Shown here piece by piece: positions 2,092 to 61,600 of a DNA stretch of 61,730 nt (its first letter is position 1; the number at the start of each line of letters is the position of its first letter). The translations under genes and the position numbers were made by a program. The stretch is taken from the NCBI GenBank assembly GCA_017525475.1, contig JAFXST010000089.1, forward strand, positions 1-61,730, read 5' to 3'. The DNA is from Kiritimatiellia bacterium. GTDB taxonomy: Bacteria; Verrucomicrobiota; Kiritimatiellia; RFP12; UBA1067. The notes under the pieces were generated by a model. The model saw only the letters and a list, made by a program, of their open reading frames with translations, did no database searches and had not been told where the DNA came from.

Positions 2092-2127
2092 GTGGGCTTG
2101 AACGGCCGCCATCGCGGCCCCCGCGAA

Positions 2128-2874
2128 ATGGTTTCGGGGGGCGAGTGGATTTACGGGCGCAATCCCGTGGAGGAGGCGCTGGCCGCGGGCCGGCGCACCT
2201 GCACCGAAGTCATCCTGCCGCCGTTCGACACGCTGGACGATCAGCTCCGGCGCATCCATGACGAATGCGTCGCCCGGCGGATCATGATCGCGCACAAGGA
2301 CCGGCACGAACTCGACAAGCTCACGCATTTCGGCCACCACCAGAACGTGGCGCTCAAGACGACCGGCTATCCTTACGTGGGCTTCGAAGACATCGTCCGT
2401 GCCGCGCACGACGACGAAAACGCCTTGGTGCTGGTGCTGGACCACCTGGAGGACCCGCAGAACGTGGGGGCCATCTTGCGCACGGCGTGCGCGGTGGGGG
2501 TTACGGGCGTCGTCATCCCCGAAGACCGCGCCTGCGGCATCACCCCGGCGGCGGTGCGCGCCTCGGCGGGCGGCACCGAATACCTTAAAGTGGCGCACGT
2601 CGTCAACCTGCCGCGCGCCATCGACGATTTGAAGGATGCGGGGCTGTGGTTCACCGGCCTCGACTGGGGCGACGATTCCAAGCCCTACACCGAAGTGGAT
2701 TTCAAGGGCCCGGTCGGGCTTGTAGTGGGCGCGGAGGGTAGCGGCATTTCGCGCCTCGTGCGCGAGAAGTGCGATTTCATCGCCCATCTGCCCATGCCCG
2801 GCGGCTTCGAAAGCCTCAACGCCGCCACGGCCGCCTCGGTCACGCTTTACGAAGTGCTGCGCCAGCGGCGGTAA
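2128..2874 (+). CDS. rlmB: TrmH/SpoU-family 23S rRNA 2'-O-methyltransferase (RlmB-like)
   Basis: N-terminal IYGRNPVEEAL, the SpoU methylase core (LDHLEDPQNVGAILRTA, GAEGSGIS) and C-terminal SLNAATAASV. ATG 2128 is preferred over GTG 2092, which abuts the pfk stop codon; the start is uncertain. Confidence 0.75.
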   Translation: MVSGGEWIYGRNPVEEALAAGRRTCTEVILPPFDTLDDQLRRIHDECVARRIMIAHKDRHELDKLTHFGHHQNVALKTTGYPYVGFEDIVRAAHDDENALVLVLDHLEDPQNVGAILRTACAVGVTGVVIPEDRACGITPAAVRASAGGTEYLKVAHVVNLPRAIDDLKDAGLWFTGLDWGDDSKPYTEVDFKGPVGLVVGAEGSGISRLVREKCDFIAHLPMPGGFESLNAATAASVTLYEVLRQRR

Positions 2875-5809
2875 ACAGTTCCGCCAGTTTGCGCTCGGGG
2901 GTTTTGCCCTTGAGGTCGGCCACGGCCGCGATTTCGCGCCCCCCCGCCTTGTAGAATACGGCGCGCCCGCCATGGGCGTCAACGTTGCCGATTCCGTTTT
3001 TCGCGCAGCGGATGCGCAAGGCCGCGAGGCGCACGAACTGTTCCGCTTCGGACGGGAGGGGCCCGAACCGGTCGGCCATTTCGTCTTTGAGACGCTTGAC
3101 CTCGCGGAGGTCTTGCGCCTCGGCGAAGCGCTTGAGCATCGACAGCCGCTGGCCTTCGTCTTCGATGTATTCGTACGGTATCGCCGCCTCGATAAAGTCG
3201 AGGTTGAGGTGCACCTCCACCGTTTCGCGCACTTTCTCGCCTTTCATCATGGCGATGGTGCGTTTCAGGAGCTGGCAGTAGAGCGTAAAGCCGACGGTGG
3301 CGATGTGGCCGGACTGCTTGCTCCCGAGGAGATTGCCCGCGCCGCGCAGTTCCAGATCGCGCACGGCCAGATTGAAGCCGCTCCCGAGGCCGCCGTGGCG
3401 CTTGAGCGCCGCGAGCCGCTCGCGCGCGTCGGAATCGACCAGCCCCTCGCCCGGGAGCAAAAAGTAGGCGTAGCCTTGCTTGGCGCTCCGCCCGACGCGC
3501 CCGCGCAGCTGGTAGAGTTCCGCGAGCCCCAGGCGTTCGGCGTGGTCCACGATGATGGTGTTGGCCCGGGGGATGTCGATGCCCGATTCGACGATGGTGG
3601 TCGAAAGGAGAATATCGGCCTTTCCCTCTTCGAACATGCGCATTTTGCCGGCGAGCGTGCGCGAATCCATTTGGCCGTGCGCGATCACGATGCGGGCGTC
3701 GGGCAACAGGCGCTGCAGGTCGCGCGCGGTCTTGCCGATGGTGGAAACGCGGTTGTGGAGGTAGAACACCTGTCCGCCGCCCGCGAGTTCCCTGGTGATG
3801 GCGCTTTTGACGAGATCGTCGGCGGCCTCCGCGACTTTGGTCTCCACCGCCACGCGTTCGCGCGGGGGCGAGCGCAGGAGCGAGAGGTCGCGCGCGCCGG
3901 TCATCGAGAGGTAGAGCGTGCGCGGGATGGGCGTGGCCGACATGGTGAGCACGTCCGCCGTGGCGCGCAGCGTCTTCAGGAACTCCTTGTGCCGCACGCC
4001 GAAGCGCTGTTCTTCGTCGATGATGATGAGCCCCAGATCGCGGAAGGCGATCTTGCCCGAAAGGATCGCGTGGGTGCCGATCACGATATCGCACGCGCCC
4101 GAGGCGAGGCGCTTGAAGGTGCCCTCGTGCGTGGCGGCGCCCTGGAAGCGCGATACCGACTCGATCCGCACGGGCGTGCCGTCGAAGCGGCTGGTGAACG
4201 TCTCGAAATGCTGTTCGGCCAGCACGGTGGTGGGCGCGAGCACCGCCGTCTGCTTGCCGTTCATGGCGGCGATATAGGCCGCGCGCATCGCCACCTCGGT
4301 CTTGCCGTAGCCCGCGTCGCCGCAGACGAGCCGGTCCATCGGCCGCGTTGCCGCCATATCCGCCTTGACGGCCGCGATGGCGGCAAGCTGGTCGGGCGTT
4401 TCCTCGTAGGGGAAGGCCGCCTCGAACGCCGCGAGTCCTTCGAGACCCTCCACCTTGCAGGCGAATCCGGGCACGATCTCGCGCCGCGCCTGCACCGACA
4501 GGAGCTGGGCGGCCAGGTCGCGCACGGCCTGTTCGGCGTCGGCTTTGTCGCGGTTCCAGCGCTTGCCGTCGAGGCGATGGACTTTTACCTCCATGCCTTT
4601 CACGCCCACGTAGCGCGACAGCAAATGCGCATGTTGGGCCGGCACGTGCAGCTTGGCGCCGTCGGCGTATTCGATGGTGAACACCTCCACCTTGGCGCCG
4701 TTGCGGTCGATGAAGTGCGAGCCGATGTATTTGCCTACGCCATGATCCACGTGCACCACGTATTCGCCCGGCTCGAGCTCGTCGAAGTCCTCGATGCGCC
4801 GCCCGGTGCTGCCCGAAGGGGCGCGGTGTTTGCGCGTTCGGGAGGCGTGCTTGGCGAACACCCGGTCGGCCTTGGTCACCACCGTCAGCCCCGGGATTTC
4901 GAACCCGCCCGACAGATCGTCGATCTGCACCACCCGGTTGCCGTGCGCCTTGGCCGCCTCGAGATGGCGCGCGAGCCGTTGGCGCGACGCCTCGAAGAGC
5001 TCCGGGTGGTGCGCTTCGCCGGCGCCCAGCTCCGAAAAGCCCGGCAGCGCCGAGGTCGCGATTTCGAGCGGCTTGAGCGCCATCGGCAAGGCGTATTCGG
5101 CCGCCGAAAAGGCGAGGATCGTCGAATCCGGCGGCAACAGGTCGAAGAGCGAGCCGCGCTCCGCCTCCTGCTCCGGCAACGCTACGGGCATTATCTGGAC
5201 TTCGGCTGCTCGCTCCACCGAAATCTGCGTGGCCGCGTCGAAGAGCCTGAGGCTCTCCAGTTCCTCGCCGAAGAACTCGGCCCGGGCCGGCAGTTCTTCG
5301 CCCGGCGACCATACGTCCAAAATGCCGCCGCGCACCGAGAATTCGCCTTCTTTGGCCACTTGGGCCGTGCGCTGATAGCCGAGCTTGGCGAGGAGTCCCA
5401 AGTCGAGACGCATGCCGGGCTTAAGCGTCAGCGGCTGGACGCCGCTTTTGGGGATGCCGCTCGCCAAGGCGGCGAAGGGAGATACGATCACGAGCGGATA
5501 GGGGCGTTCGGCCCACGCCTTGAGCGCCGCCGCCGTTTTGAGCCGCGCGCCCAGCGAAGCGCGCTCGCCCGGCACGAGCGGCGGAAACTCGAGGATCCGC
5601 TTTTCGCCGGTGGCGGCGAGGATGCGCAAATCGTCCAGCATCCGATCGGCTTCGGGGATGCCGGCGCAAACCGCCAAGGTTACGCGATTGGCGGCGCAAA
5701 GCGTAAGAAAAGCGCCGGCCGCGCCCGACATGGGCGCAACGTTCCACGCCCCGCCGCGCCGGAGGGCGGGGGGTAGGCGGGACGCGAAAAACTTTATCGC
5801 CGCTTTCAT
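2840..5809 (-). CDS. mfd: Transcription-repair coupling factor Mfd
   Basis: 989-aa ORF with VVHVDHGVGKY, helicase motifs GDAGYGKTEVA and IIDEEQRFG, and a TRCF-type C-terminus. Its 3' end overlaps the rlmB 3' end convergently (2840-2874). Confidence 0.9.
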   Translation of the reverse strand: MKAAIKFFASRLPPALRRGGAWNVAPMSGAAGAFLTLCAANRVTLAVCAGIPEADRMLDDLRILAATGEKRILEFPPLVPGERASLGARLKTAAALKAWAERPYPLVIVSPFAALASGIPKSGVQPLTLKPGMRLDLGLLAKLGYQRTAQVAKEGEFSVRGGILDVWSPGEELPARAEFFGEELESLRLFDAATQISVERAAEVQIMPVALPEQEAERGSLFDLLPPDSTILAFSAAEYALPMALKPLEIATSALPGFSELGAGEAHHPELFEASRQRLARHLEAAKAHGNRVVQIDDLSGGFEIPGLTVVTKADRVFAKHASRTRKHRAPSGSTGRRIEDFDELEPGEYVVHVDHGVGKYIGSHFIDRNGAKVEVFTIEYADGAKLHVPAQHAHLLSRYVGVKGMEVKVHRLDGKRWNRDKADAEQAVRDLAAQLLSVQARREIVPGFACKVEGLEGLAAFEAAFPYEETPDQLAAIAAVKADMAATRPMDRLVCGDAGYGKTEVAMRAAYIAAMNGKQTAVLAPTTVLAEQHFETFTSRFDGTPVRIESVSRFQGAATHEGTFKRLASGACDIVIGTHAILSGKIAFRDLGLIIIDEEQRFGVRHKEFLKTLRATADVLTMSATPIPRTLYLSMTGARDLSLLRSPPRERVAVETKVAEAADDLVKSAITRELAGGGQVFYLHNRVSTIGKTARDLQRLLPDARIVIAHGQMDSRTLAGKMRMFEEGKADILLSTTIVESGIDIPRANTIIVDHAERLGLAELYQLRGRVGRSAKQGYAYFLLPGEGLVDSDARERLAALKRHGGLGSGFNLAVRDLELRGAGNLLGSKQSGHIATVGFTLYCQLLKRTIAMMKGEKVRETVEVHLNLDFIEAAIPYEYIEDEGQRLSMLKRFAEAQDLREVKRLKDEMADRFGPLPSEAEQFVRLAALRIRCAKNGIGNVDAHGGRAVFYKAGGREIAAVADLKGKTPERKLAELFTAAGAALRKA

Positions 5810-11756: not shown

Positions 11757-11761
11757 GGTTT

Positions 11762-11993
11762 ATAGAACGCAAGTGCCGATCAGGTTGAACGCAAGCCGCT
11801 GGCGCGGCACGCTATAAGAGAGTTTGCATTCCCATGCCTCTGCGTTCCAACTAACCCTCACGTTCCCGAAAAATCCTCGCGGGGGGATGAAATAGGGCGG
11901 TAGAGGGGCCGGAGGAGGCCGGGCGGCGAGGCCGCCAATTTTCGCTTCCTTTGCCTTCAACGCCCGCCAAAGGCCGTTAAACCTTGGCTAAAG
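11762..11993. repeat. Direct repeat copy 1 (about 232 bp) flanking the ATPase cassette
   Basis: The 176-bp core 11807-11982 differs from 13345-13520 at only 4 positions by hand alignment. The looser 5' part carries two GAACGCAAG motifs (11765, 11787). The core contains the inverted partners TTGCATTCC and CTGCGTTCC and a GGCGGC-GAG-GCCGCC hairpin followed by AATTTT (11922-11942). Confidence 0.9.
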
Positions 11994-12038
11994 CCGCCCC
12001 AAAGAGCACTAAAATGCTTGCTTTATCTTAATTACCGC

Positions 12039-12067
12039 TTGCTTTCTCTACCAAAAAATGCTATAAT
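12039..12067 (+). promoter_or_regulatory. Putative promoter of the ATPase cassette
   Basis: TTGCTT (12039-12044), a 17-nt spacer ending in TGC, then TATAAT (12062-12067) followed by A. Confidence 0.5.
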
Positions 12068-12135
12068 ATTCCTCATCTCAACGGAATTAAGTGTGCAAAT
12101 CCAACACTTACTGTTGAAATTGCAAGGATAAATCT

Positions 12136-13293
12136 ATGGATAACTATATAAACCGAGCCTTGGAAGATAGCATTCGCTTGGGCCTTAAGCGCAATCCAGT
12201 GTTGGCGCTTTTGGGGCCTCGGCAATGCGGCAAGTCCACTTTGGTGCGCAAGCTTCGCCAGGAGTTTGCCGATTCTCTCTATCTGGATATGGAGCGCCCC
12301 TCGGATGTCGCCAAGTTGGCGGATCCGGAGTTGTTCTTGTCCCGTTGCCAAGACAAACTCGTCTGCATCGACGAAATTCAGCGGAGGCCAAACTTGTTTC
12401 CGGTCTTGCGCTCGTTGTGCGACGAATGGGGTGACAATGGCCATTTCCTGGTTTTAGGGTCGGCCTCGCGCGATCTCATTCGCCAAAGTTCCGAAACGCT
12501 GGCCGGTCGCATCCGTTACGAACGGCTTACGCCATTTCTTTATGGCGAACTGCCAGATTGCGATTGGCAGCGCTACCTTTATCGCGGAGGTTTCCCTCGT
12601 GCCTATCTTGCGTCTGACGATTCGGCGGCGCACGATTGGCTGGAATCCTTTATTCAAACGTTTCTCGAACGGGATTTGTCGTTCTGGCGCGAGTTTGTGC
12701 CCGAAACCATGCGCCGCCTATGGCGCATGCTGGCGCACGACAATGCGCAGATTGCCAATTTTGCCCGGCTTGCCGGCTCGCTGGGCGTGTCCGACATGAC
12801 GGTGCGGCGCTATCTCGATCTGCTCAAAGAAACATTTATGGTCGATGTAGTAAGCCCGTATTCTGCTAACCTCGGCAAGCGGTTAGTCAAGTCGCCCAAA
12901 GTGTACCTTGGCGATACCGGCATAACCTGTGCGCTGTTGGGTATGGCTTCGTTCGACGATCTCTACTCCAGCCCCGCTTTTGGCGGTTGCTGGGAACAGT
13001 TGGTGTTGGCCAATCTTCGTGGCGCATTTCCGCAGGCCGAAATCTGTTTCTACCGCACTTCCGGCGGTGCCGAAATCGATTTTGTGGTTTCAGGCAATGG
13101 CAAGACCGTGGCCGTGGAGTGCAAGGCATCTACTGTGCCATCTGTTGGCCGCGGAGTCTACGAGTCGCTTGAAGCAATTAGGCCAGATGCAGCTTTTGTG
13201 GTGGCGCCAATCGCCGAGCCCTATCCGCTCAACGATCGCATTACCGCCGTTCCGCTTTCGCACCTGCCAAAGCTATTTGACAACTTGCGCTAA
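12136..13293 (+). CDS. AAA+ ATPase with C-terminal DUF4143-type domain
   Basis: AAGGA RBS. Walker A GPRQCGKST, Walker B VCIDEIQ, and the length and layout of the COG1373 / DUF4143 ATPase family. Confidence 0.85.
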   Translation: MDNYINRALEDSIRLGLKRNPVLALLGPRQCGKSTLVRKLRQEFADSLYLDMERPSDVAKLADPELFLSRCQDKLVCIDEIQRRPNLFPVLRSLCDEWGDNGHFLVLGSASRDLIRQSSETLAGRIRYERLTPFLYGELPDCDWQRYLYRGGFPRAYLASDDSAAHDWLESFIQTFLERDLSFWREFVPETMRRLWRMLAHDNAQIANFARLAGSLGVSDMTVRRYLDLLKETFMVDVVSPYSANLGKRLVKSPKVYLGDTGITCALLGMASFDDLYSSPAFGGCWEQLVLANLRGAFPQAEICFYRTSGGAEIDFVVSGNGKTVAVECKASTVPSVGRGVYESLEAIRPDAAFVVAPIAEPYPLNDRITAVPLSHLPKLFDNLR

Positions 13294-13298
13294 TTATA

Positions 13299-13532
13299 TA
13301 TAGAGAACGCAAGCCGTTTTTGAGGAACGCAAGCGGCTAGCGCCGCACGCTATAAGAGAGCTTGCATTCCCATACCTCTGCGTTCCAACTAACCCTCACG
13401 TTCCCGAAAAATCCTCGCGGGGGGATGAAATAGGGCGGTAGAGGGGCCGGAGGAGGCCGGGCGGCGAGGCCGCCAATTTTCGCCTCATTTGCCTTCAACG
13501 CCCGCCAAAGGCCGTTAAACATTGGCTCAAGC
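13299..13532. repeat. Direct repeat copy 2 (about 232 bp)
   Basis: See copy 1. GAACGCAAG motifs at 13305 and 13325; core at 13345-13520. Confidence 0.9.
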
Positions 13533-13562
13533 GATTATGGCGATAATTGGGTCAAACAAGAC

Positions 13563-13576
13563 AAAAAAAAAAAAAA
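13563..13576. repeat. A14 homopolymer
   Basis: 14 consecutive A residues, 15 nt upstream of the -35 hexamer at 13591 and at the junction between repeat copy 2 and the AT-rich island. Confidence 0.95.
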
Positions 13577-13590
13577 CACCCATTTAGCAT

Positions 13591-13620
13591 TTGACGGCGA
13601 CCGCCGGCAAATGCTATAAT
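13591..13620 (+). promoter_or_regulatory. Putative promoter for the membrane-protein / giant-protein operon
   Basis: TTGACG (13591-13596), an 18-nt spacer ending in TGC, then TATAAT (13615-13620) followed by A. Confidence 0.55.
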
Positions 13621-13648
13621 ATAGGTAAATTTGGCAGAGGTTTTGCCT

Positions 13649-13715
13649 CTCCAGTTCGTGTTTAGACGGTTACGGGTTCTTAGCGGTTTCCCACAAGTCT
13701 AAACACGAACTCGAG
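13649..13715 (+). other. Long perfect hairpin in the roughly 230-nt 5' leader
   Basis: AGTTCGTGTTTAGAC (13653-13667) pairs perfectly with GTCTAAACACGAACT (13697-13711). That is a 15-bp stem with a 29-nt loop, extendable by 3 bp across one C-C mismatch. Confidence 0.7.
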
Positions 13716-13857
13716 CGGCAAGCCAAAGCCGAACCGCTACTAATCGCTAAAACAGTGCTACTGCATCTATGTGCCATAAATTGGTTATGCCCATTGACGA
13801 TTGCGCGTCCATACCAGCGCTATCGGTGGGGGCAACTGTAATCCGCGGAGGCTAGTC

Positions 13858-14772
13858 ATGGGGTTTAAGAAATTTATCAAGAAAGATGTGCAAACCAAAC
13901 GCGAGAATCTTTACGTTGATTGCTTCGTCAAAGGTTTAGGCGCATGTATCATTTTTGGGCTGATATGCTTTGTGGCCTATGCTGTAGCATGCAAATTGCT
14001 GACGAAATTCGGTGTACTGAATGCTAATTGGTTTTCTATCTCCTACTTCCATGGTGTCACATTGATTGCGTTATTGTCGTTGGCGGTTGCGGCAATATCC
14101 GTATATGTCACGATCAAGGTCAACGAGACCGTAAACTATCATTCCTTTAATACCCAATATGGCGGCAACGATATGCTGTCGGCAATACGCGCTGTTGGCG
14201 ATGTCGGGCGGCGTTGGACTGCATATTTCTGTGGTTCGCCAGATGGAGCCGGCTTTATTGCTCCGTATGTGTTCACTAGAAATGAAGATTACAATCCTAA
14301 TGACCGGCTGATCATAAAGAATATCAAATCTTTTGTTGTCGACAATAACCGCTACATGCCTTGGTCCGAGGAAGAAGATCGCGCCCGTAGAATGTTGAAG
14401 AATCATTTTTCCCAGGCCCTCGAGCTTTACCGAACGAGAAGGATAGGGAAAAGCGTTTTCCGCAATATTTGCGATAACGATTCATTGAGATTGCTTTTTG
14501 AGGTGGTAGAACCCATGGAGGCAATCATGAACGAGGAATACCATTTCAACGTATTCTACGAAATCATGGAGGCCATGAAAGACGAATGTCCTCGGCTCAG
14601 GGATATTACCAAGGCGCATGACTATACGCGCTATTATTGGGATGTTCCCAAAGAAAAAGGCGCCGAACCGCCACAGAAATCGTGGGTTAAAAGGAACGCT
14701 CCTTGTGTCAACGCAAATCCCAATAACACGGCAGGGCAAGAAGCCTCGCAAGAAAACAATCTCAAAAAGTAA
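13858..14772 (+). CDS. Hypothetical membrane protein (two predicted TM helices plus a soluble C-terminal domain)
   Basis: ATG 13858 follows GGAGG. There are hydrophobic stretches at about residues 25-45 and 60-85, and no family is recognisable by eye. AT-rich codon usage. Confidence 0.6.
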   Translation: MGFKKFIKKDVQTKRENLYVDCFVKGLGACIIFGLICFVAYAVACKLLTKFGVLNANWFSISYFHGVTLIALLSLAVAAISVYVTIKVNETVNYHSFNTQYGGNDMLSAIRAVGDVGRRWTAYFCGSPDGAGFIAPYVFTRNEDYNPNDRLIIKNIKSFVVDNNRYMPWSEEEDRARRMLKNHFSQALELYRTRRIGKSVFRNICDNDSLRLLFEVVEPMEAIMNEEYHFNVFYEIMEAMKDECPRLRDITKAHDYTRYYWDVPKEKGAEPPQKSWVKRNAPCVNANPNNTAGQEASQENNLKK

Positions 14773-14799
14773 GACGAGAGTAAGAAAGGAGTATGTTTT

Positions 14800-17700
14800 A
14801 TGAATAAGACATTGACTGGAATAACTGTTGCGCCTCTGACGCGTTTGTTCACGCTGGGGCTGTGCATTTTCGCAATCGGCCATGCCTGGGCGGCGGTAAA
14901 GCCGCTCGCCGTCTGGAATGGGGATTTTGTCGATAACAGCGAACGAGGTGGTTTTACATTTACCATCAATGGGAATGAGCAGCTTGGTGTTGACGGTGTT
15001 AAGATGGGCTCATCAAATGCACTGAAGTTTGATTATGATATTACCGCAACGAGGGTATACAACACAGGAACAAAGGCATATCCGATTTCTATCGTTGCAG
15101 CAATGTCAAACATTGTTGTGACAGCAAGTACACCAGAGTCTACCAGGACATTGTTTTCTATTTCTCAGTTTGCATCATCTGCTGCTAATCAGTCGGTAAA
15201 AGCCAATTTTTATTCTTTTTCGCTTAATCCAAAATCATCAACGGGCTATTATTTAGGTGGTGATGGCAATTTGACCCGTGTGACAGGTACTTCAAGTTAT
15301 GCTCCCGTGAATGTATTTGATAATGCTGATACATGGCACTATATGGCAATGAAGCATAGTGGCAATGTCGGCACTCGGGGATGTGAGATTTCTGCTGGTA
15401 ATAACTTTCGTGAACTGGTTTATGACTCAACGTTGAAGTGGGGCACTAACGATGGATGGGGCTATTGGGGTTTGACGGTTGGTGGCGCCGGCACTGCGAA
15501 CAACAATTGCACAGATGCTGTTGTGCGTTATGTAGCACTAATTCAATCAGATGCTGACACAGACGTCGAAGCGTGGTCATTAAGAAACATGACGCGGGCA
15601 GAGACGCTCACGAGTTCATCAACTTCGTTTACAGGAGGCGACAATGTCGGTGTAAACTTCAACGGTGGCACGATTACGGTCGCGTCCGCACAGACGGCGG
15701 CGGCGCTGTTTGTTCAAGAGTCCACGACGATTGCGATTAATGGTTCAGGAAAAATTACAACAACGGCAAACGGCCCATACCAGGGACCTCTATATATCGC
15801 GGACGGCAAGACGCTGACGGTTACCACGGACAAGGCGACGGAGGCAAATCTGCGTTCCGCTTTTGATGCCTCGCTTGGAACGGGAACGATTACGCTAATA
15901 GATGCTCCAGTATATGGAACTGTTGACCTCTCGAATATTACGTCCTCATTGCCGACAATTGACGGCTACACAATTGTGGCGACAAGTGATGAAAATGGTG
16001 TGCGCATAGTAATGTCTTTAAATGGCGTCAATTACACTGGAACTGTAACAGGCGAAGCGACCTGGGCGGACAAGACGAATATTTCTTCAACGGATACCTG
16101 GGCGAACAGCCCAAGTTCTACGATTACGCTTTGCAATGAGGCCGAGGCATCTTTGACATTTGATGAAGATGTAAACGCCGAGTCGCTTACACTGAATGGC
16201 ACGGGTAAAATAACGCTCAGCCGTGGCAACAATGTCAATGTGCGGATAGGTGACAACACAACGGCAGGCAAGGCTATAATCGTGAATACCGAGGCCGTGC
16301 TTGAGGATTTGGGGCAGGATGCAGCTGTCCGCATAACAGGTTCAAACAAGGCGACCCTAAAAGACTATACAGCATTCCCCGCCGGCAGTACATTGCCTAG
16401 CACAGGAACACTTCGCATGGAAAGCGATACTGTCACGCTGACGGCATTCCCGTGCGCGGGCGTGAATCTTGCGGGAACCGTAGAAGTTGACCAGTCGATT
16501 ACATTGACGGGAGATGGTTTTTATTTGTACGACAACAAGCCTGCCGTGAACATAGAAGGGGGAACGGATTCGTTCTCGAGATTTGTCCTTGGAAACAAAT
16601 CGTCTTACGACAATCCAACTCAAACCGTCACTCAGAACGGCGGATCGATAACAGTAACAGGCACTGCAGAGCCGACAAGCACAAGTGCAACTATGCTCCT
16701 TGGACACTGGCCCTCGACATCCTATCTATATACGCGCGGCGGTACATTTTCAGTTCCCAACGCAGCTGTTCGCATGGGATGGAATGGTGGCGCGACATGG
16801 GAAATCGGTGGAGGAACAGGGACTGCTACGGTAACGGTGCCAGGCATTCTAATCAGTAAGAATGGTACTGCCGGGCGAGGAACGGTGAATGTGGCGGCAA
16901 AAGGAACGCTGAACCTTGGTTCGTACGGTCTTCAGATGCAGTCAAGCGCGGGAACACTGAATCTCTCCGGCGGCACGATCAAGGCGACCACAGACACAAC
17001 CATTGCAAACAACAAGAGTGATGGCACTGTGCTTACGGCGTCAAAGGAGACAACAATAGATACAACAAGCGGCAACGTAACTATCTCCGCGCCGTTGAGT
17101 GGTTCGGGAAGTCTGAATGTGACCGGCGGCGGAACATTGACGATAACCGGAAGCGGAACAGCGTCTGGAGGAACCATCAAAGCGACAGACAGTACAATTG
17201 TCCTTAGCGGAAACGGGGCGAAGCCTGGCGATACGATGTATAGTTTGAAGAAGGCAAGTGGTTCGAGCACAACGGCGAAGCTTGAGATTCGCCCTGGCGA
17301 AGGCAATACGATAACCCTTGCTCCAACGCATATCATCAACTCCACTGATTCTGGAGCGCAAATAATCGTAGGTGCTGGAACGACGAAGATTGCACACACC
17401 CAGACAAACGCGGGATCTGGAACGTTTGGAGGCGCGGTTGTCAAAGTAGAGGACGGGGGTACGCTGGAAGTCAATAACATCAACTGGACGGTTGAAAATG
17501 TAACATACGGCCTTGAAATAGGTGCGTCCAGTAAGTTTGCGGTAAATGCGCTTTCAACAAATTGTCGCCCGATCACGATGGGCGAGGGCGCTACGCTCGA
17601 AGTCTCGAAGGGTAGCAGTTATTCGACAACGGATGGGGCGCTGAAACTGGATTTTAGAAATGGCAATGGCTTTACCGTAAACGGCAATGCTACAATTCAG

Positions 17701-19566
17701 GCGACTGGCGAAGACGCAGAAACGCCTTTCATCAACATGACAGGTTCGGCGGCGCAACCTTTCAATGTCGCAAGTGAAAAAACACTTTCGGTAAATGCCA
17801 ACATCAAAGGAACGTCGGCATTGACGAAAACAGGCGCAGGTAAGCTTGCACTCAATGGCTATGGAGCAGATAGCGGCTACACGTACACCGGCACGACTAC
17901 GGTTAGTGCGGGGACGTTGGAAATCAATGCAACGCAGACTGGCTCGCCATATAGCCTTGTGGCAGGATCAACGCTGAAGTTTGGCACTTACGCGTCCGTG
18001 ACAATGCCGTCCATTATTCTTCCTGCGTCCGGGACGGCGGCGATTGACGTGAGTGCGTTGACGATTGGCGAAAACGGTGTGAAGCTTGTCACGTTTGCGA
18101 CGACGGCGCCGACCCAGGCGGATGTTGACAGCAAGCTGACAGTGACGGGGGGATACGCACTGAAGGTAGAGGATAACGCGCTCAAGGCGTATCCTGCTGT
18201 GGCGCAATATAACGGCAAGGGGTATGAAACCGTCAAGGCGGCGATTGACGCGGCGGTTGCGGACGGGCACACGTATGCCGATGTCACGATTCTCGACGCG
18301 ACGGCGGAGTGCCCGGATGGGTATTATATCGACAACGGCACACTGAAGAAGAAGCCTGCTTCTATAACGGTCGGCGAAAACGTTTATTATTACACTACCA
18401 TACAGGCGGCGGTACAAGATGCTCTTCCCGCGCCGTATGGGAGCCACTCCAACTACGACTATCTCACCATCTACGAAAGCAACACGGCGGTGGCGATGAT
18501 GGATTACACGCTCAAGCTTGCCACCGCGCCCGGCGTGACGGGTGTGACGGTTTCTCTGCCGGTTTCATTTACTACTACCGAATACGCCGTCTCGTCTGTT
18601 TCAGGCGATACTTATACGACGTATTCCGTTTCTGTGAATCCCAAGACTTATCGGTGGAAGAATGCGGCGGCTGGCACGCTTTGGACGACCCCTTCGAATT
18701 GGGAATTCCAAGACAATGAAACGTGGACGAGCGCACAGCGCTATCCGGGCGACGGCACGACGGGCGACTCCGTCGTCGTGACGGGCGATACGTCCATTCA
18801 GCTTGGTAATGCCGTGACGCTCGCTTCGTTGCAGGTGACGGACGGTGCGCTGGCGCTCGCGATTCCGAGCCAAGGAACAGCGACAACCTTGACCGCTTCC
18901 GAGATTACGCTCGGAGCGAACGCCACAATATCTCTTACAGGCGTGACGCTTTCGCAAGATCCTACGAGCGGGGTGGATTTGATGTATGTCAAGGCCACAA
19001 ATTCAGATGGGACCACTACTTACTCCTTGCAGGCGGCCGGAACGGTCGAAGAGGGGGTTGCCAAGATTACCGATGCCACCGCCGAAGTGACGGTTCCGGC
19101 AAACGCCACTGCAATCGAGGCGGCCCCGGCTGTATCCTCGATCAAACTGGCAGATGGATCGGCGATTACGGACAGCGACGTTACCGTAAAGTATAACGGC
19201 ACGACCAACATAACCGGCGCATTTTCCATCTCGGTAGCTGGCGATCAAGTCACTCTTGCCCTCAATGCGAACGGGTCGGTGACCATCAGCGACAAGACGA
19301 TTACGGTGAAGCCGGCAGTGGATACGTCGGCTGATCCGATGACGATGCCGGACGAAACAACAGCGCCGTCGTTCAACATCAAGACGATTCCGGGCCTCTA
19401 TTATGTGGTGAGGTCGGGTACTTCGCCGAACTCGCTTGCCGCCGGTTCGGCCACGCAGGCCACCACCACCACCACTGGCCTTGCGGGTCCGGCGCTGGGT
19501 AACAAGGACACTGTCCGCTACTACAAGATTTCGGTCGGCCGCACCGCCGCCGAAGCCGCGCAGTAA
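14800..19566 (+). CDS. Giant secreted repeat protein: signal peptide, LamG/concanavalin-like N-terminal domain, autotransporter-associated beta-strand repeats, distinct roughly 60-aa C-terminal module
   Basis: 1588-aa ORF with RBS AAAGGAG. Signal peptide LGLCIFAIGHAWA. Repeated GTLxLSGG / TKTGAGKLALNG...TYTGTTTVSAGTLEIN motifs typical of PVC-type autotransporter-associated beta-strand repeat proteins. The C-terminus reads IPGLYYVVRSG...VRYYKISVGRTAAEAAQ. Confidence 0.85.
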   Translation: MNKTLTGITVAPLTRLFTLGLCIFAIGHAWAAVKPLAVWNGDFVDNSERGGFTFTINGNEQLGVDGVKMGSSNALKFDYDITATRVYNTGTKAYPISIVAAMSNIVVTASTPESTRTLFSISQFASSAANQSVKANFYSFSLNPKSSTGYYLGGDGNLTRVTGTSSYAPVNVFDNADTWHYMAMKHSGNVGTRGCEISAGNNFRELVYDSTLKWGTNDGWGYWGLTVGGAGTANNNCTDAVVRYVALIQSDADTDVEAWSLRNMTRAETLTSSSTSFTGGDNVGVNFNGGTITVASAQTAAALFVQESTTIAINGSGKITTTANGPYQGPLYIADGKTLTVTTDKATEANLRSAFDASLGTGTITLIDAPVYGTVDLSNITSSLPTIDGYTIVATSDENGVRIVMSLNGVNYTGTVTGEATWADKTNISSTDTWANSPSSTITLCNEAEASLTFDEDVNAESLTLNGTGKITLSRGNNVNVRIGDNTTAGKAIIVNTEAVLEDLGQDAAVRITGSNKATLKDYTAFPAGSTLPSTGTLRMESDTVTLTAFPCAGVNLAGTVEVDQSITLTGDGFYLYDNKPAVNIEGGTDSFSRFVLGNKSSYDNPTQTVTQNGGSITVTGTAEPTSTSATMLLGHWPSTSYLYTRGGTFSVPNAAVRMGWNGGATWEIGGGTGTATVTVPGILISKNGTAGRGTVNVAAKGTLNLGSYGLQMQSSAGTLNLSGGTIKATTDTTIANNKSDGTVLTASKETTIDTTSGNVTISAPLSGSGSLNVTGGGTLTITGSGTASGGTIKATDSTIVLSGNGAKPGDTMYSLKKASGSSTTAKLEIRPGEGNTITLAPTHIINSTDSGAQIIVGAGTTKIAHTQTNAGSGTFGGAVVKVEDGGTLEVNNINWTVENVTYGLEIGASSKFAVNALSTNCRPITMGEGATLEVSKGSSYSTTDGALKLDFRNGNGFTVNGNATIQATGEDAETPFINMTGSAAQPFNVASEKTLSVNANIKGTSALTKTGAGKLALNGYGADSGYTYTGTTTVSAGTLEINATQTGSPYSLVAGSTLKFGTYASVTMPSIILPASGTAAIDVSALTIGENGVKLVTFATTAPTQADVDSKLTVTGGYALKVEDNALKAYPAVAQYNGKGYETVKAAIDAAVADGHTYADVTILDATAECPDGYYIDNGTLKKKPASITVGENVYYYTTIQAAVQDALPAPYGSHSNYDYLTIYESNTAVAMMDYTLKLATAPGVTGVTVSLPVSFTTTEYAVSSVSGDTYTTYSVSVNPKTYRWKNAAAGTLWTTPSNWEFQDNETWTSAQRYPGDGTTGDSVVVTGDTSIQLGNAVTLASLQVTDGALALAIPSQGTATTLTASEITLGANATISLTGVTLSQDPTSGVDLMYVKATNSDGTTTYSLQAAGTVEEGVAKITDATAEVTVPANATAIEAAPAVSSIKLADGSAITDSDVTVKYNGTTNITGAFSISVAGDQVTLALNANGSVTISDKTITVKPAVDTSADPMTMPDETTAPSFNIKTIPGLYYVVRSGTSPNSLAAGSATQATTTTTGLAGPALGNKDTVRYYKISVGRTAAEAAQ

Positions 19567-19616
19567 CCCAGCCTCCATATCTGGCACACGCAGGGCGGGG
19601 ACCACTCCCCGCCCTG
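19519..19616. repeat. Gene-end-plus-terminator repeat, copy A (functional 3' end of the giant gene)
   Basis: A 33-nt block (19519-19551) and a 30-nt block (GCCTCCATATCTGGCACACGCAGGGCGGGG) are identical to 20863-20895 and 20918-20947. Confidence 0.9.
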
Positions 19617-19622
19617 TGTTTT
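19591..19622 (+). terminator. Rho-independent terminator of the giant gene
   Basis: CAGGGCGGGG (19591-19600), loop ACCACT, CCCCGCCCTG (19607-19616), then TGTTTT. Confidence 0.8.
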
Positions 19623-19808
19623 AGTGTATTCCTGCTATCAGTGGTTGTGGATGACTACTGTCGCAAGCGTTGTCAATTGAACGCCGTGTTCAAAGCGGAT
19701 ATGACTCCGCTTTGGTATAGGAGCGTGGATAAATGCAGTAATTTGCAGTAATATTAGTAAATACATCGATAATATACTGCACCATTCCGGATGACACACA
19801 GATAAAGA

Positions 19809-19838
19809 TTGACAAAGGCATGGAGAATATGGTATAAT
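19809..19838 (+). promoter_or_regulatory. Putative promoter of the three-gene mini-cassette
   Basis: TTGACA (19809-19814), an 18-nt spacer ending in TGG, then TATAAT (19833-19838) followed by A. Confidence 0.6.
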
Positions 19839-19847
19839 ATGCGGCAA

Positions 19848-20114
19848 ATGGAACATATTGCAATACTTGGCAATAAAGGCAGATATACTTCGTTTTCGTT
19901 TGGCGGAAAGGAAGTGCGCTTTCTTTCGCCGTCGAATCTTGCGGGGTATCGGCGCGTAACCAAGTGGGACAATGGCTATATCGAGGCGGTGGCGGACTAT
20001 GGAAAGGGCGAGGAAGAGGAATACATCGACTTGATTCCGATTCTCGAGAATCTGTTTATCGAGCCAAAGGAGTTTCTGGCGCCAATCGACAAAGTGGAGG
20101 TGGCAAATGTCTGA
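19848..20114 (+). CDS. Hypothetical small protein (88 aa), possibly translated from a leaderless mRNA
   Basis: The first usable in-frame ATG (19848) lies only about 10 nt after the -10 hexamer, and there is no SD. The 3' end overlaps the next gene. Confidence 0.5.
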   Translation: MEHIAILGNKGRYTSFSFGGKEVRFLSPSNLAGYRRVTKWDNGYIEAVADYGKGEEEEYIDLIPILENLFIEPKEFLAPIDKVEVANV

Positions 20115-20331
20115 TGAGAAAAAATCCGCAATCGCCGACAGCGCCGATTTGATTGTCAACGACTATGCGATAATCCGCAATGGCGACAATTTGCGCTTGG
20201 TCAACTTGCGCACCGGCAATGCGGCGGTAGTGTTGCCGGGCAATGTCGTAAGCGAAACCAGCATGGGCGATATCGAGCTTGGGATAGCGCTCGACTATCT
20301 CAAGAACAATCTGCAATTCCTTGCCGCCTGA
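20107..20331 (+). CDS. Hypothetical small protein (74 aa)
   Basis: GGAGG (20096-20100) lies 6 nt before ATG 20107. The gene overlaps the preceding gene by 8 nt. Confidence 0.55.
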   Translation: MSDEKKSAIADSADLIVNDYAIIRNGDNLRLVNLRTGNAAVVLPGNVVSETSMGDIELGIALDYLKNNLQFLAA

Positions 20332-20333
20332 CC

Positions 20334-20612
20334 ATGCCCAAGTATTACGGATTCAAGGTTTACGGATATTATCTGTACTTTACTTCGCACTGCGTGGTAG
20401 AGGCAATGCACGCCCATGCCAGCGATACTCGATTGTCCGAACGTGGCTCGGCAAAGTTTTTTGTCCGTGCAGACGGCTCTTCGGAGGTTGCCGAGCGAGG
20501 CAGACTGACCGATCGTGAGCTTGTCGGCATTCGCGAGTTTATCCGTTGCAACTACCGGGATATGTATATGCGCTGGTCTGAATATTCCGACCAGGGCTTT
20601 TATCGGGCGTAG
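20334..20612 (+). CDS. DUF4160-like small protein (92 aa)
   Basis: The N-terminus MPKYYGFKVYGYYLYFTS...HAHAS...AKFFV follows the DUF4160 pattern (short beta-hairpin, His-containing segment, then xAKFxL). It starts 2 nt after the previous stop codon. Confidence 0.55.
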   Translation: MPKYYGFKVYGYYLYFTSHCVVEAMHAHASDTRLSERGSAKFFVRADGSSEVAERGRLTDRELVGIREFIRCNYRDMYMRWSEYSDQGFYRA

Positions 20613-20648
20613 ATGCGGCAATCTTGATATTCCCAGTGGAAACTGACA

Positions 20649-20682
20649 CAAAACGTCGGATCCCCTCCGCCGTTTTGCTTTG
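20649..20682 (+). terminator. Putative terminator of the mini-cassette
   Basis: CAAAACGTCGG (20649-20659), a 7-nt loop, CCGCCGTTTTG (20667-20677, one internal mismatch), then CTTTG. Confidence 0.5.
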
Positions 20683-20862
20683 AGCCTTGCTGCGCATTGC
20701 GCCAGACTTGCGGCATGCCGCCCTAGAGCGGCGTGGCTGAAATGTTTGCTTCTCGATATCCCAATCCACCTTAGCCCGGCGCATGCTCGGATACTTATCA
20801 GGTATAGGGTGATATATACATACCTTAAATCCATTGCCCCGGCTTTCGCAGGCACGGTTCAA

Positions 20863-20960
20863 TACTACAAGATTTCGGTCGGCCGCACCGCCGCCTAAGC
20901 CTCGGTCGAGTAACGACGCCTCCATATCTGGCACACGCAGGGCGGGGCTCACTCCCCGCC
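20863..20960. repeat. Gene-end-plus-terminator repeat, copy B (decayed 3' remnant of a paralogous giant-protein gene)
   Basis: Reads ...APAFAGTVQYYKISVGRTAA*, compared with ...GPALGNKDTVRYYKISVGRTAAEAAQ* in copy A. A TAA replaces the GAA codon, and the terminator stem GGCGGGG/CCCCGCC is retained (20941-20960). Confidence 0.85.
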
Positions 20961-21101
20961 TTGTTGTTTCTTCGCTCCCGGGTGATCTAGATTGCGGGGC
21001 GCAGAGGGTTGGAAGGGGGCGGAAGAGGTAAACGGCAAAGTGGTTTTGGACGGGCGATAGCGGGATTTTGCGGGATTTAGGGTGAAAATTCAAAGTTGTA
21101 C

Positions 21102-21130
21102 TTGAAAAATGAACCCAGGTGTACTATAAT
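21102..21130 (+). promoter_or_regulatory. Putative promoter reading into the repeat-array tract
   Basis: TTGAAA (21102-21107), a 17-nt spacer, then TATAAT (21125-21130) followed by A. Tandem GCGGGATTT x2 (about 21059 and 21069) lies just upstream. Confidence 0.55.
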
Positions 21131-21160
21131 ATGTCTGCATTCAACGAAATGGAGGCGCAG

Positions 21161-21445
21161 ATGATAACTCGAGAATTGGGTCGAATCATTCAGCAGGATG
21201 CCAAATTGTATCTGGCCGGGAACCTGCGGAAGTTTGCGTCGGAAGAGCCGAATGTGGCCGGTACGGCCTTGGTTTACGACGGTGCCGATATCCCGGCGGC
21301 AGACGGCAAGGATACGGCGGTTTTACCAACAAAAGGGGCAAATACGGCCAAGCTTTGGCCAATAGTTACCGCTTCAACTTGCCGGATATTACGCCAAAAG
21401 CGGAAAACACAGTGTCCGGGAGCCAGACAGGGCAGTGTCCGGTAA
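21161..21445 (+). CDS. Questionable small ORF (94 aa)
   Basis: ATG 21161 lies 5 nt after GGAGG (21151-21155). However, the 3' third runs into repeat array 1, and the stop codon is the TAA spacer of the perfect palindrome TGTCCGG-TAA-CCGGACA. No recognisable family. Confidence 0.25.
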   Translation: MITRELGRIIQQDAKLYLAGNLRKFASEEPNVAGTALVYDGADIPAADGKDTAVLPTKGANTAKLWPIVTASTCRILRQKRKTQCPGARQGSVR

Positions 21446-21525
21446 CCGGACAGGGCAGTGTCCGGGAGCCGGACAGTGTAGTGTCCGGGAGCCAGACACT
21501 GCAGTGTACGGCAGCCGGACACCAA
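21411..21525. repeat. Array 1: 5 x 23-bp tandem units, each with the dyad GTGTCCGG-N3-CCGGACAC
   Basis: Unit starts are at 21411, 21434, 21457, 21480 and 21503, exactly 23 bp apart. Units 2 and 3 have perfect 7-bp arms. Confidence 0.9.
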
Positions 21526-21750
21526 CAGAATGGTATCAGAATTGGCAACACTCTCTTTAACACCGATACCGAACAGAAGGCAGAATCGGGTTCGGGTTTA
21601 AAGAAATTGGAGGAAAGTAGGGGGAGAGGGCAGAAAGAAGGGATCGACCAGGTCAAGAGCGAGATTAGACAGGGCGAGTGGGACTCGGTCAAGAACTACC
21701 TCGCCGTGTTCGTCCGCCGCATCCAATCCCGCTTAGGACTGACCGTGTAG

Positions 21751-21860
21751 CATCCCGATGCCTGCGCCTCGCCATCCCGATCCCCGCCCGCCTCCATCCC
21801 GATGACGATGCGCTTTCATCCCGATGCCTGCACCTCGCCATCCCGATGCCTTCGGGTCCG
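21751..21860. repeat. Array 2: 5 x 22-bp direct repeats with invariant core CATCCCGAT
   Basis: Core starts are at 21751, 21773, 21795, 21817 and 21839, exactly 22 bp apart. Units 1 and 4 differ at one position. Confidence 0.9.
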
Positions 21861-21950
21861 GCGAGGATTTGATTTGGGTCCGGACCCGATTTGGATTTGG
21901 TCCCGAGGAAGGGTCTAGTTGCCCTAGGCAACTTGGCCCGTTGCTCTAGG
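21854..21950. repeat. Bridging 22-bp-phased motif pairs (GGGTCCGG / GATTTG units; GTTGCYCTAGG pair; 17-bp palindrome)
   Basis: GGGTCCGG at 21854 and 21876, then GGTCCC at 21899. GATTTG occurs four times. AGTTGCC-CTA-GGCAACT (21917-21933) is a palindrome. GTTGCCCTAGG at 21918 and GTTGCTCTAGG at 21940 are 22 bp apart. Confidence 0.75.
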
Positions 21951-21962
21951 CGCGGCGACTTG

Positions 21963-22116
21963 TTCTCCGTGGAACGCGAGCGACTTGCTCACGGAGACCG
22001 CCAAAGTTCTCCACGGAGACGGCCCAAGTTCTCCACGGTGACCATCGCCGTTCTCCGTGGAGACCATCCGCGTTCTCCGTGGAGAAAATTGGAATCCTCC
22101 ACGGCGATTGGCGCAG
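21963..22116. repeat. Array 3: 7 x 22-bp units with quasi-palindromic core TTCTCC-RY-GGAGAC
   Basis: Unit starts are at 21963, 21985, 22007, 22029, 22051, 22073 and 22095, exactly 22 bp apart. The central dinucleotide alternates GT and AC, so the core occurs in both orientations. Confidence 0.9.
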
Positions 22117-22162
22117 GGGACTTGGGCGTCAGATCCAACCGTTGGCAGGGTGCGCCTTTCGC

Positions 22163-22192
22163 TTGACAAATCGGGTCGGAATATGGTATAAT
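22163..22192 (+). promoter_or_regulatory. Putative promoter of tRNA(CAT)
   Basis: TTGACA (22163-22168), an 18-nt spacer ending in TGG, then TATAAT (22187-22192) followed by A. The tRNA starts at 22223. Confidence 0.65.
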
Positions 22193-22222
22193 ATACGCAA
22201 TCATTTACCCAAGAAGGTTAAT

Positions 22223-22299
22223 GGACCCGTAGCTCAGTCGGTCAGAGCAGGTGACTCATAATCTCCGGGTCGTGGGTTCAAGTCCCGCCGGGTCCACCA
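22223..22299 (+). tRNA. tRNA with anticodon CAT (elongator Met, or Ile2 read via lysidine); CCA encoded
   Basis: Hand-folded cloverleaf: acceptor GGACCCG/CGGGTCC, D-arm GCTC-AGTCGGTCA-GAGC, anticodon loop CTCATAA, T-arm GTGGG-TTCAAGT-CCCGC. It has a G1-C72 pair and lacks the GGG/CCC anticodon stem, so it is not an initiator tRNA. Confidence 0.9.
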
Positions 22300-22308
22300 A
22301 CTTTTGCG

Positions 22309-61141: not shown

Positions 61142-61600
61142 ATGAACAAGTCAATCGTCTGCGCCTTGTGCGCATTGTTGAGCGTGGCGGCGGTGGCCGC
61201 CCCGAGAGGCCCGGCGCCCCGGCGTCACGCACCCAAGGCCGTGCACCATTTCCGGCCGGCGCCCCGGCACCATCACCACCACCATGCCGAAGTCGGCCTG
61301 GTGGGCGGATTTGTCGGCGGCGTGGTGGGGAGCCTCGTCTACGATGCGATCGTGCGCCCCGAGCCGGTGGTGGTAAGCCCCGCCCCGGTCGTGGTGGCCC
61401 AACCCGCGCCCGTGGTGGTGTCCCAGCCGGCGCCGGTGGTGGTAAGTTCCGCTCCGGTAGTGGTCGAAGCCGCCCCCGCCGCCCAGGTGGAGCGCGTCTG
61501 GGTGGGCGGCCGGTACGTGGACCAAGTGCAGGCCAACGGCTCGATCGTCCGCGTCTGGCAACCCGGCCACTGGGAAGAGCGCCTCGTCGTCGTGCGTTAG
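61142..61600 (+). CDS. Small secreted protein with a His6 run and PAPVVV tandem repeats
   Basis: Signal peptide MNKSIVCALCALLSVAAVAAP. HHHHHH, then four or five copies of (S/A)PAPVVV(A/S)(Q/S), and C-terminal RVWVGGRYVD...VRVWQPGHWEER. Confidence 0.65.
   Translation: MNKSIVCALCALLSVAAVAAPRGPAPRRHAPKAVHHFRPAPRHHHHHHAEVGLVGGFVGGVVGSLVYDAIVRPEPVVVSPAPVVVAQPAPVVVSQPAPVVVSSAPVVVEAAPAAQVERVWVGGRYVDQVQANGSIVRVWQPGHWEERLVVVR

Follow-up and report, generated by a model that had tools for sequence, protein, structure and literature searches.

The tract considered here, positions 21102-22192 of a contig stretch of 61,730 nucleotides (nt) that was analysed at its full length (the window), carries a chain of tandem repeat arrays in a register of 22-23 base pairs (bp). 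It forms the right end of an island of low guanine-plus-cytosine (GC) content (~12000-22300, 46-57% GC versus ~64% GC for the genome). Our analysis suggests, with a probability of roughly 65%, that the tract represents the right-hand end, now disabled, of a lambda-like replication module, with its origin inside the initiator gene, that occurs in chromosomal islands of gut Kiritimatiellae. An earlier, sequence-only reading of this DNA had found no convincing gene in the tract and no rep gene anywhere in the window. Neither claim holds. The stretch 21316-21750 is the 3' part of a replication-initiator-like gene (rep) with the first of the arrays, array 1, inside it, and residues 75-258 of P0001, an intact homolog of 258 amino acids (aa), align to 21316-21747 in this reading frame (tblastn, E = 2.5e-85).

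An initiator-like gene and the array within it

A protein search with the translated tract returned homologs of 195-258 aa, which consist of a winged helix followed by the frame-1 reading of 21316-21750. The homology begins at 21315/21316, the same base in comparisons with three independent loci; the DNA upstream of this point is unrelated and contains a promoter and, in a different frame, 51 orphan codons. Missing from the remnant are the DNA-binding N-terminus (the HTH_36 domain) and 120 bp, encoding 40 aa of the C-terminal domain, that are deleted between 21642 and 21643. The window holds neither a second copy of the gene nor a copy of U, the usual upstream partner of rep. Because the N-terminus and these 40 residues have been lost and neither a second copy nor U is present, the window gene is a recent pseudogene and the module here is a disabled relic; the part shared with the intact locus L005 is 99.4% identical. 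The possibility that the open reading frames (ORFs) at 21161 and 21355 together represent a single gene, broken by a frameshift or a change in 23-bp units, was rejected, since the intact homologs show that the 51 N-terminal codons are unrelated and that homology begins only at 21316.

The intact proteins resemble replication initiators. Both P0001 and a second homolog, P0003, match Pfam HTH_36 (PF13730) at 31.6 and 32.2 bits, respectively, versus a cut-off of 25. Among the PHROG families, 'replication initiation protein' and 'replication initiation O-like' match P0001 (E = 2.7e-8 to 8.6e-5) and a 'DnaD-like helicase loader' is also among the matches (E = 2.7e-8 to 1.3e-3 for the whole set), with the O-like families matching the N-terminal domain (E = 4e-5 to 9e-5). 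In the AlphaFold model residues 1-95 form a winged helix and the C-terminal domain is helical, both with confidence, and the disordered linker between them (99-171) spans the part encoded by the iteron DNA. Foldseek returned generic winged-helix matches only, the best being of the MarR and Fur types, with RepA_N initiators (4pql, 4pt7) at E ~0.04; RepA_N (PF06970) was absent among Pfam matches at E <= 1, and the Rep profile found no match among PDB sequences. A profile search gave 181 clusters at E <= 1e-10 and the family is therefore small. The named genomes that carry it are a Kiritimatiellae metagenome-assembled genome (MAG) from yak cecum and, distantly, a Planctomycetota MAG, while locus scans of genomes and JGI metagenomes with a narrow alignment (A1) gave no match. 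Numerous database homologs comprise an N-terminal fragment only, of 128-153 aa.

About 20 related loci, mostly from gut Kiritimatiellae, carry the 23-bp dyad array, with 4-8 units of a 19-bp dyad each. In the 17 in which the start offset could be measured it always lies within the initiator gene, beginning 308-351 nt past the start codon. The sequence-only reading had argued that repeats of this period cannot be carried in a reading frame; for array 1 this argument fails, as the array is translated in the intact relatives, and three units of 23 bp make 69 bp and hence an in-frame periodicity of 23 residues in their proteins. The constraint on the array is nevertheless at the DNA level. The outer GTGT/ACAC of the dyad is almost fixed across loci and the inner arms vary by locus in a compensatory manner (CCGG/CCGG, CCGA/TCGG, CCTC/GAGG, AGCC/GGCT, CG../..CG). 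In 66 distinct units 81% of arm positions are paired, versus 67% after shuffling (a value of 81% was reached in 0 of 500 shuffles) and 14-38% in slid controls, and dyad cells in which both arms have changed number 86 versus 25 expected. The half-site also covaries with the recognition helix of the protein: HLSR[SA]T..A.ALN is paired with GTGTCC, HLHRVTVSQCLN with GTGTAGCC, and both HLHRSTVVSCLN and HLHRATVAQCLN with [GA]TGTCG. Past the last unit, ACACCAACMGAA is found in every locus and is read in frame 0, 1 or 2 depending on the member; GATRCCGAAC is often present as well, in frame 2 or 0. Since these flanking motifs are read in three frames, it is the DNA that is conserved and not the peptide. 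The 50 nt past the array have 34-56% A and 28-48% GC versus ~64% GC for the genome. Taken together, the compensatory arms, the helix covariation and the frame-independent motifs point to array 1 being a DNA-level site that is probably bound by a protein.

The number of units differs between loci. There are five in the window and in L005 versus two in L002; the difference of three units means that the frame is kept, as it is between P0003 and P0001. Eight units and an intact protein of 294 aa are found in L039 (2972-3153) and L040. The array of L041 (1344-1478) has six units, one of them with a 1-nt deletion, and is 47 nt shorter, and its protein is frameshifted to 181 aa. Unit loss of this type may represent slippage-driven frame switching or plain decay.

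A mechanism for array 1 can be proposed with fair confidence. The DNA that encodes the linker would itself be the origin, made up of 4-8 dyad units of 23 bp and then an A-rich stretch of low GC content. Dimers of the initiator would sit, through their winged helices, on the dyads, which lie along one face of the DNA at intervals of two helical turns. They would curve the DNA or wrap it around themselves and melt the adjoining A-rich stretch, as lambda O does at ori-lambda. The arrays of the window cannot fire on their own because its initiator has no DNA-binding domain and U is absent; the relic could act only if a matching initiator were supplied in trans.

Arrays past the gene and the module around them

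The tandem arrays of 22-23 bp described in the sequence-only reading are real. Tandem Repeats Finder recovered 4.9 copies of a 23-bp unit at 21410-21521, 4.6 copies of a 22-bp unit at 21751-21851 and 22-bp rows of 2.5-3.6 copies at 21990-22085; a further repeat search recovered the dyads, along with the smaller units GGGTCCGG and GTTGCYCTAGG, and the autocorrelation of the 600 bp past 21750 has its peak at lag 22 (0.45 versus a mean of 0.26). The promoter-like sites at 21102 and 22163 and the tRNA(CAT) at 22223-22299 are likewise present where that reading had placed them. It had named membership of the cores in a dispersed REP-like family as an outcome that would refute it, and our counts speak against such a family. 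In the 61.7-kb window TCTCCRYGGAGA has 4 matches versus 0.65 expected, CATCCCGAT 5 versus 0.89 and GTGTCCGGNNNCCGGACAC 5 versus 0.47, each count being reached in 0 of 100 shuffles, and all matches of the three cores fall within the arrays. No 21-23-bp arrays of similar score were found elsewhere in the window or in the long related loci; a repeat of 21 bp in 1.9 copies and one of 24 bp lie at 61356-61443 of the window.

Arrays 2-5 follow the rep stop codon. The same four arrays are found in the same order past the rep stop codon of L002, and the homology between this locus and the window stops at 22085, within array 5, after which L002 has a different promoter and gene. The promoter at 22163..22192 is therefore not part of the module. 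At the corresponding place L009 (three arrays), L032 (nine units), L021, L025, L038 and L016 have chains of 21-23-bp arrays whose cores are unrelated, while in L019, L038, L003 and L022 arrays lie upstream of the operon instead. The core CATCCCGAT is unchanged in 18 units from three loci and the 13-nt spacers vary. From their sequence, these features of arrays 2-5 fit tandem binding sites for proteins of several kinds.

Further light on the arrays comes from L004, in which an IS481-family element (240-1695) is inserted in an array of the TCTCC type. This locus keeps arrays 5, 2 and 1 along with a new GGTAGC-N5-GCTACC array, and has neither initiator domain. The IS481 element has three 22-bp subterminal repeats of its own (TGTAACCTATGTCCCTTGTCTA) at each end. 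The apparent inverted copies around its transposase raised the idea that array 5 is a transposon end; this was rejected because what surrounds the transposase is an array of palindromic units split by the insertion and the element has different repeats. In viral contigs the TCTCC pair pattern gave no match and the CATCCCGAT pair pattern three, which is about chance. The IMG/VR phage contigs L035 (2567-2623) and L037 (5247-5303) contain, just upstream of a promoter and near a terminase gene, a 22-bp x 2.6 repeat whose core, CCTCCATCCCGAT, has the same 13 nt as some array 2 units; given how large the collection is, this match is close to chance. When the tract was compared by BLAST with plasmid and phage collections, the tRNA was the sole match.

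The intact module begins with U, continues with the initiator-like protein of ~260-290 aa, and often ends in a gene-free few hundred bp with arrays. U (~195-240 aa) ends a few bases upstream of rep in most loci with enough upstream sequence, and its model is confident (AlphaFold predicted local distance difference test, pLDDT, 85.5; predicted template modelling score, pTM, 0.77). The model of U (alignment A5; for example L019 1488-2147) has an N-terminal helix of 50 residues, a small beta unit, a helical bundle and a basic tail. In L002 the place of U is taken by a DUF3987 P-loop protein that matches phage primases. Directly upstream of U-rep in L038 is a 452-aa phage-type helicase (1877-3235; phrog_12156, E = 1e-64) with a C-terminal winged helix, and a 22-bp x 2.4 array lies between the two; the helicase is a candidate binder of one class of accessory arrays. 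The neighbours of the modules are chromosomal genes and genes of defence or accessory type (AbiE, HigB, DNA methylase, AAA_14/DUF4143 and DUF4160). No par-type domain was found in the Pfam-scanned island genes or in the gene tables of related loci. The partition centromere suggested in the sequence-only reading is thus not borne out, as there is no ParA, ParB or ParR gene in the window or in any related locus. A partial tRNA copy, as would result from a tRNA-end duplication by integration, was looked for in the window and none was found.

Our suggestion for arrays 2-5 is much more tentative than that for array 1. They would be accessory tandem protein sites of the same module, with invariant cores and free spacers, whose partners may be other proteins acting in trans or encoded nearby, such as the L038 helicase with its winged helix. 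Loading, copy control or regulation is their probable role, and this is the least certain part of the proposal.

Comparison with known systems and competing explanations

The closest parallel is the lambdoid origin, in which iterons and an AT-rich tract lie in the middle of gene O and the binding unit is a 19-bp imperfect inverted repeat (PMC7466680). In the lambda annotation four iterons lie 348-432 nt into gene O at spacings of 20, 24 and 23 bp, with an A-rich run after them. In both systems, then, the origin, which here is a presumed one, is embedded midway in the gene of its initiator, the array starting 308-351 nt into the gene here and ~350 nt into it in lambda. The 4-6 imperfect inverted repeats of 18-19 bp, 20-24 bp apart, correspond to the five 19-bp dyads at 23 bp in the window; an A-rich stretch, here the presumed unwinding region, follows the iterons directly in both; and the N-terminal DNA-binding domain is connected to the C-terminal domain by a stretch that the origin encodes, which here, according to the model, is the disordered linker. 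The Kiritimatiellae module differs from lambda in that it is chromosomal and without phage genes, has the orphan U upstream instead of a P-type helicase loader downstream, keeps a regular period of 23 bp and has additional arrays with unrelated cores past the gene.

Two other systems share parts of this layout. The Vibrio cholerae PLE satellite has a non-coding region with four types of repeat, only one of which is bound by its winged-helix RepA (PMC7145576). As in RepA_N and PLE initiators, a winged-helix N-terminal domain is combined with a lineage-specific C-terminal domain, and as in PLE a series of heterologous repeats lies beside the initiator of a chromosomally integrated element. However, Pfam RepA_N is lacking in our module and the fold matches to RepA_N initiators are weak; unlike PLE, no integrase or satellite genes were seen and the arrays consist of short tandem runs with a 22-23-bp register. 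Plasmid initiators with the HTH_36 domain (PF13730) are known from Paracoccus (pAES7/pMARC3/pMOS2; PMC3832669) and from Planctomycetes (bioRxiv 10.1101/2024.01.22.576637), with iterons near or inside rep. These plasmids are autonomous and have partition systems, and the passages considered describe neither a 23-bp dyad array in a disordered linker nor a U-like partner.

In the classical iteron plasmids R6K, RK2, F and P1, tandem initiator sites are spaced at about two helical turns (22 bp) and extra iteron clusters serve copy control, with all clusters sharing one core and one Rep. In contrast, at least four unrelated cores follow one another here. The suggestion in the sequence-only reading of a decayed integrated replicon with iteron-type sites serviced in trans is supported by the comparative data for array 1 and is plausible for the rest. 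Its statement that the architecture is not that of a described element does not apply to the core layout, which is known from lambda (PMC7466680) and PLE (PMC7145576); the heterologous 22-bp series is left unexplained.

Several observations weigh against a lambda-like replication module. The search of plasmid, phage and viral contigs for the initiator family gave no true relative, and U has no sequence or structural match in Pfam, NCBIfam, PHROG, PDB or a fold search. All long module contexts are chromosomal. No integrase, excision signature or circular contig was seen at the loci, so that the status of the module as a replicon is argued from homology and architecture. The covariation of helix and half-site comprises 3-4 related classes, which are not independent events, and hhalign finds no similarity to lambda O (probability 0.2%). 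About half of the loci with enough downstream sequence have no downstream arrays, and arrays 2-5 are for this reason not essential parts of the module; of 20 accessory consensus units, about half have a dyad of at least 5 bp and the rest none.

The winged-helix protein could alternatively be a transcription regulator and the arrays operators for adjacent promoters: that of the tRNA here, those of giant secreted proteins in L002 and L007, and that of the operon itself where arrays lie upstream of U. A consensus promoter is indeed found 35-80 bp past the last array in the window, L002 and L004, and in L019/L020 and L038 the promoter region of the U-rep operon contains arrays. The chromosomal setting of every context also suits a regulator, as does the fact that HTH_36 is a general helix-turn-helix domain as well, with best Foldseek matches to regulators of the MarR and Fur types. 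We consider this explanation unlikely, since the PHROG matches all fall in replication-initiation families, an array inside its own coding sequence with a conserved A-rich flank is typical of origins and not of operators, the arrays of L009 face not a promoter but the 3' end of a convergent gene, and the module adjoins a helicase of phage type in L038 and a P-loop protein of primase type in L002. Less probable than this is that the heterologous 22-bp arrays are a functional design in which each is a landing pad or decoy for a different replication protein, such as helicase-winged-helix fusions or rival initiators. The module would then be a multi-key replicon, or an iteron sponge within a defence island where rep has been lost, and the gain and loss of 23-bp units would in addition switch the frame of the initiator and make origin firing phase-variable.

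Lower again is the probability that the arrays act as RNA or single-stranded DNA, as a row of hairpins that is transcribed with rep and stabilises or regulates the transcript, or as structured signals. Predicted folding far exceeds that of shuffled controls, with z = -10.3 in array 1 and z = -6.9 in arrays 2-5; a stem would also be compatible with the compensatory changes of the dyad arms; and no terminator separates the rep stop codon from array 2. However, any array of palindromic protein sites folds strongly, so that the z-scores do not tell these explanations apart, and a pure RNA stem does not predict the covariation of the half-site with the recognition helix. Nor would it account for the accessory cores without a significant dyad, CATCCCGAT among them, or for the centre of the array 5 palindrome, which at 2 nt is too short for a hairpin loop; in Rfam only the tRNA passes, all other rows being far below their gathering scores. 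We regard as the most doubtful of these alternatives an iteron decoy, in which arrays without an initiator titrate the initiators or DNA-binding proteins of incoming elements or phages and so protect the cell. It draws on the recurrence of array-only or rep-dead copies (the window and L004), the defence-type genes among which the modules lie, the fast turnover of cores between relatives, and a precedent in which plasmid-borne ori-lambda iterons block lambdoid phages, the lambda inhibition phenotype needing ITN3-4 (PMC3349717). That precedent, however, needs OOP RNA too, and our searches found no phage or plasmid with matching iterons beyond the near-chance phage-contig match. The intact arrays of the window say nothing about selection, since the truncation is recent when compared with L005.

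If a lambda-like origin-in-gene module is the correct explanation, it would be a new replication module of the Kiritimatiellae, composed of an orphan protein and a winged-helix initiator whose linker is encoded by its own origin. To our knowledge, this phylum has almost no characterised mobile elements, and the module would thus extend the layout of an origin inside a gene well past the enterobacterial phages. The data also provide a clean natural case of co-evolution between recognition helix and iteron, and the module may help in developing replicating vectors for uncultivated gut Kiritimatiellae. The window copy, being a dead relic, is probably of little local biological importance.

Features of the tract and its surroundings

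The features of the tract are listed in the table. The chimeric ORF that begins at 21161 is, from 21316 on, an out-of-frame reading over the rep remnant, and it has no Pfam or PHROG match.

Table. Positions of features in and around the tract, in window coordinates
Feature	Position	Strand	Remark
Terminator-like hairpin	20937..20964	+	Ends the upstream DUF7724-DUF7723-DUF4160 operon; part of a ~105-bp repeat
Sigma-70-like promoter TTGAAA-17-TATAAT	21102..21130	+	11/12 matches; in DNA unrelated to the intact modules
Chimeric 94-codon ORF	21161..21445	+	First ~51 codons without relative; stops within iteron 2
Winged-helix (HTH_36) initiator-like gene remnant	21316..21750	+	5'-truncated
Array 1	21411..21525	none	5 x 23 bp, 19-bp dyads GTGTCCGG-N3-CCGGACAC; presumed initiator-binding iterons of the origin
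Conserved motif ACACCAACAGAA	21519-21530		Start of the presumed unwinding region of the origin, 21519..21585
Conserved motif GATACCGAAC	21565-21574		Within a low-GC stretch, 34% A, 44% GC
Array 2	21751..21860		5 x 22 bp, invariant core CATCCCGAT; begins right after the rep stop codon
Array 3	21852..21905		GGGTCCGG(ACCC) / GATTTG units, 22-23-bp spacing
Array 4	21918..21958		Two GTTGCYCTAGGC units 22 bp apart, the first a 6-N3-6 dyad
Array 5	21962..22116		7 x 22 bp on the 16-bp palindrome G[TG]TCTCC-RY-GGAGA[AC]C
tRNA consensus promoter	22163..22192	+	12/12 matches
tRNA, anticodon CAT	22223..22299	+	Right-hand neighbour of the island

Genes for giant secreted proteins are often found beside the modules (988 and 1306 aa in L002, 1265 and 3681 aa in L007, 944 aa in L003). 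In the window a 1588-aa protein with a PATR autotransporter repeat (14800-19566) occupies a large part of the low-GC island. At the island's left edge lie an AAA_14/DUF4143 ATPase gene (12136-13293) and the direct repeats of ~234 bp that flank it (11761-11994 and 13301-13532, 92-96% identical). The same type of ATPase lies beside U-rep in L039 and L040, and beyond its 3' end there is a palindromic array of 23 bp x 5.3 (TAGGTGTACACC...).

The ~105-bp repeat with a G+C-rich terminator-like hairpin (GCAGGGCGGGG...CCCCGCCCTG) is present at 19519-19621 and 20863-20969 of the window, where it closes successive island operons, and it also precedes the U-rep operon in L005 (240-284). Between these two copies, at 19809-20612, a consensus promoter (12/12) lies ahead of DUF7724, DUF7723 and DUF4160, which may constitute a toxin-antitoxin-like cassette. 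An extended -10 box, AATATGGTATAAT, is found at 19825, 22179 and 43440 as well as in related loci, and seems to be the lineage's signature of strong promoters.

The module adjoins tRNA genes in two loci, the window and L022, with no integrase seen. In L022 (2014-2251) three opposite-strand tRNA genes (Trp, Asn, Cys) lie within 140 bp past rep. The tRNA at 22223-22299 of the window is Met(CAT) according to ARAGORN; its anticodon arm, GACTCATAATC, resembles that of the lysidine-modified tRNA-Ile2, and some of its phage BLAST matches carry the annotation tRNA-Ile.

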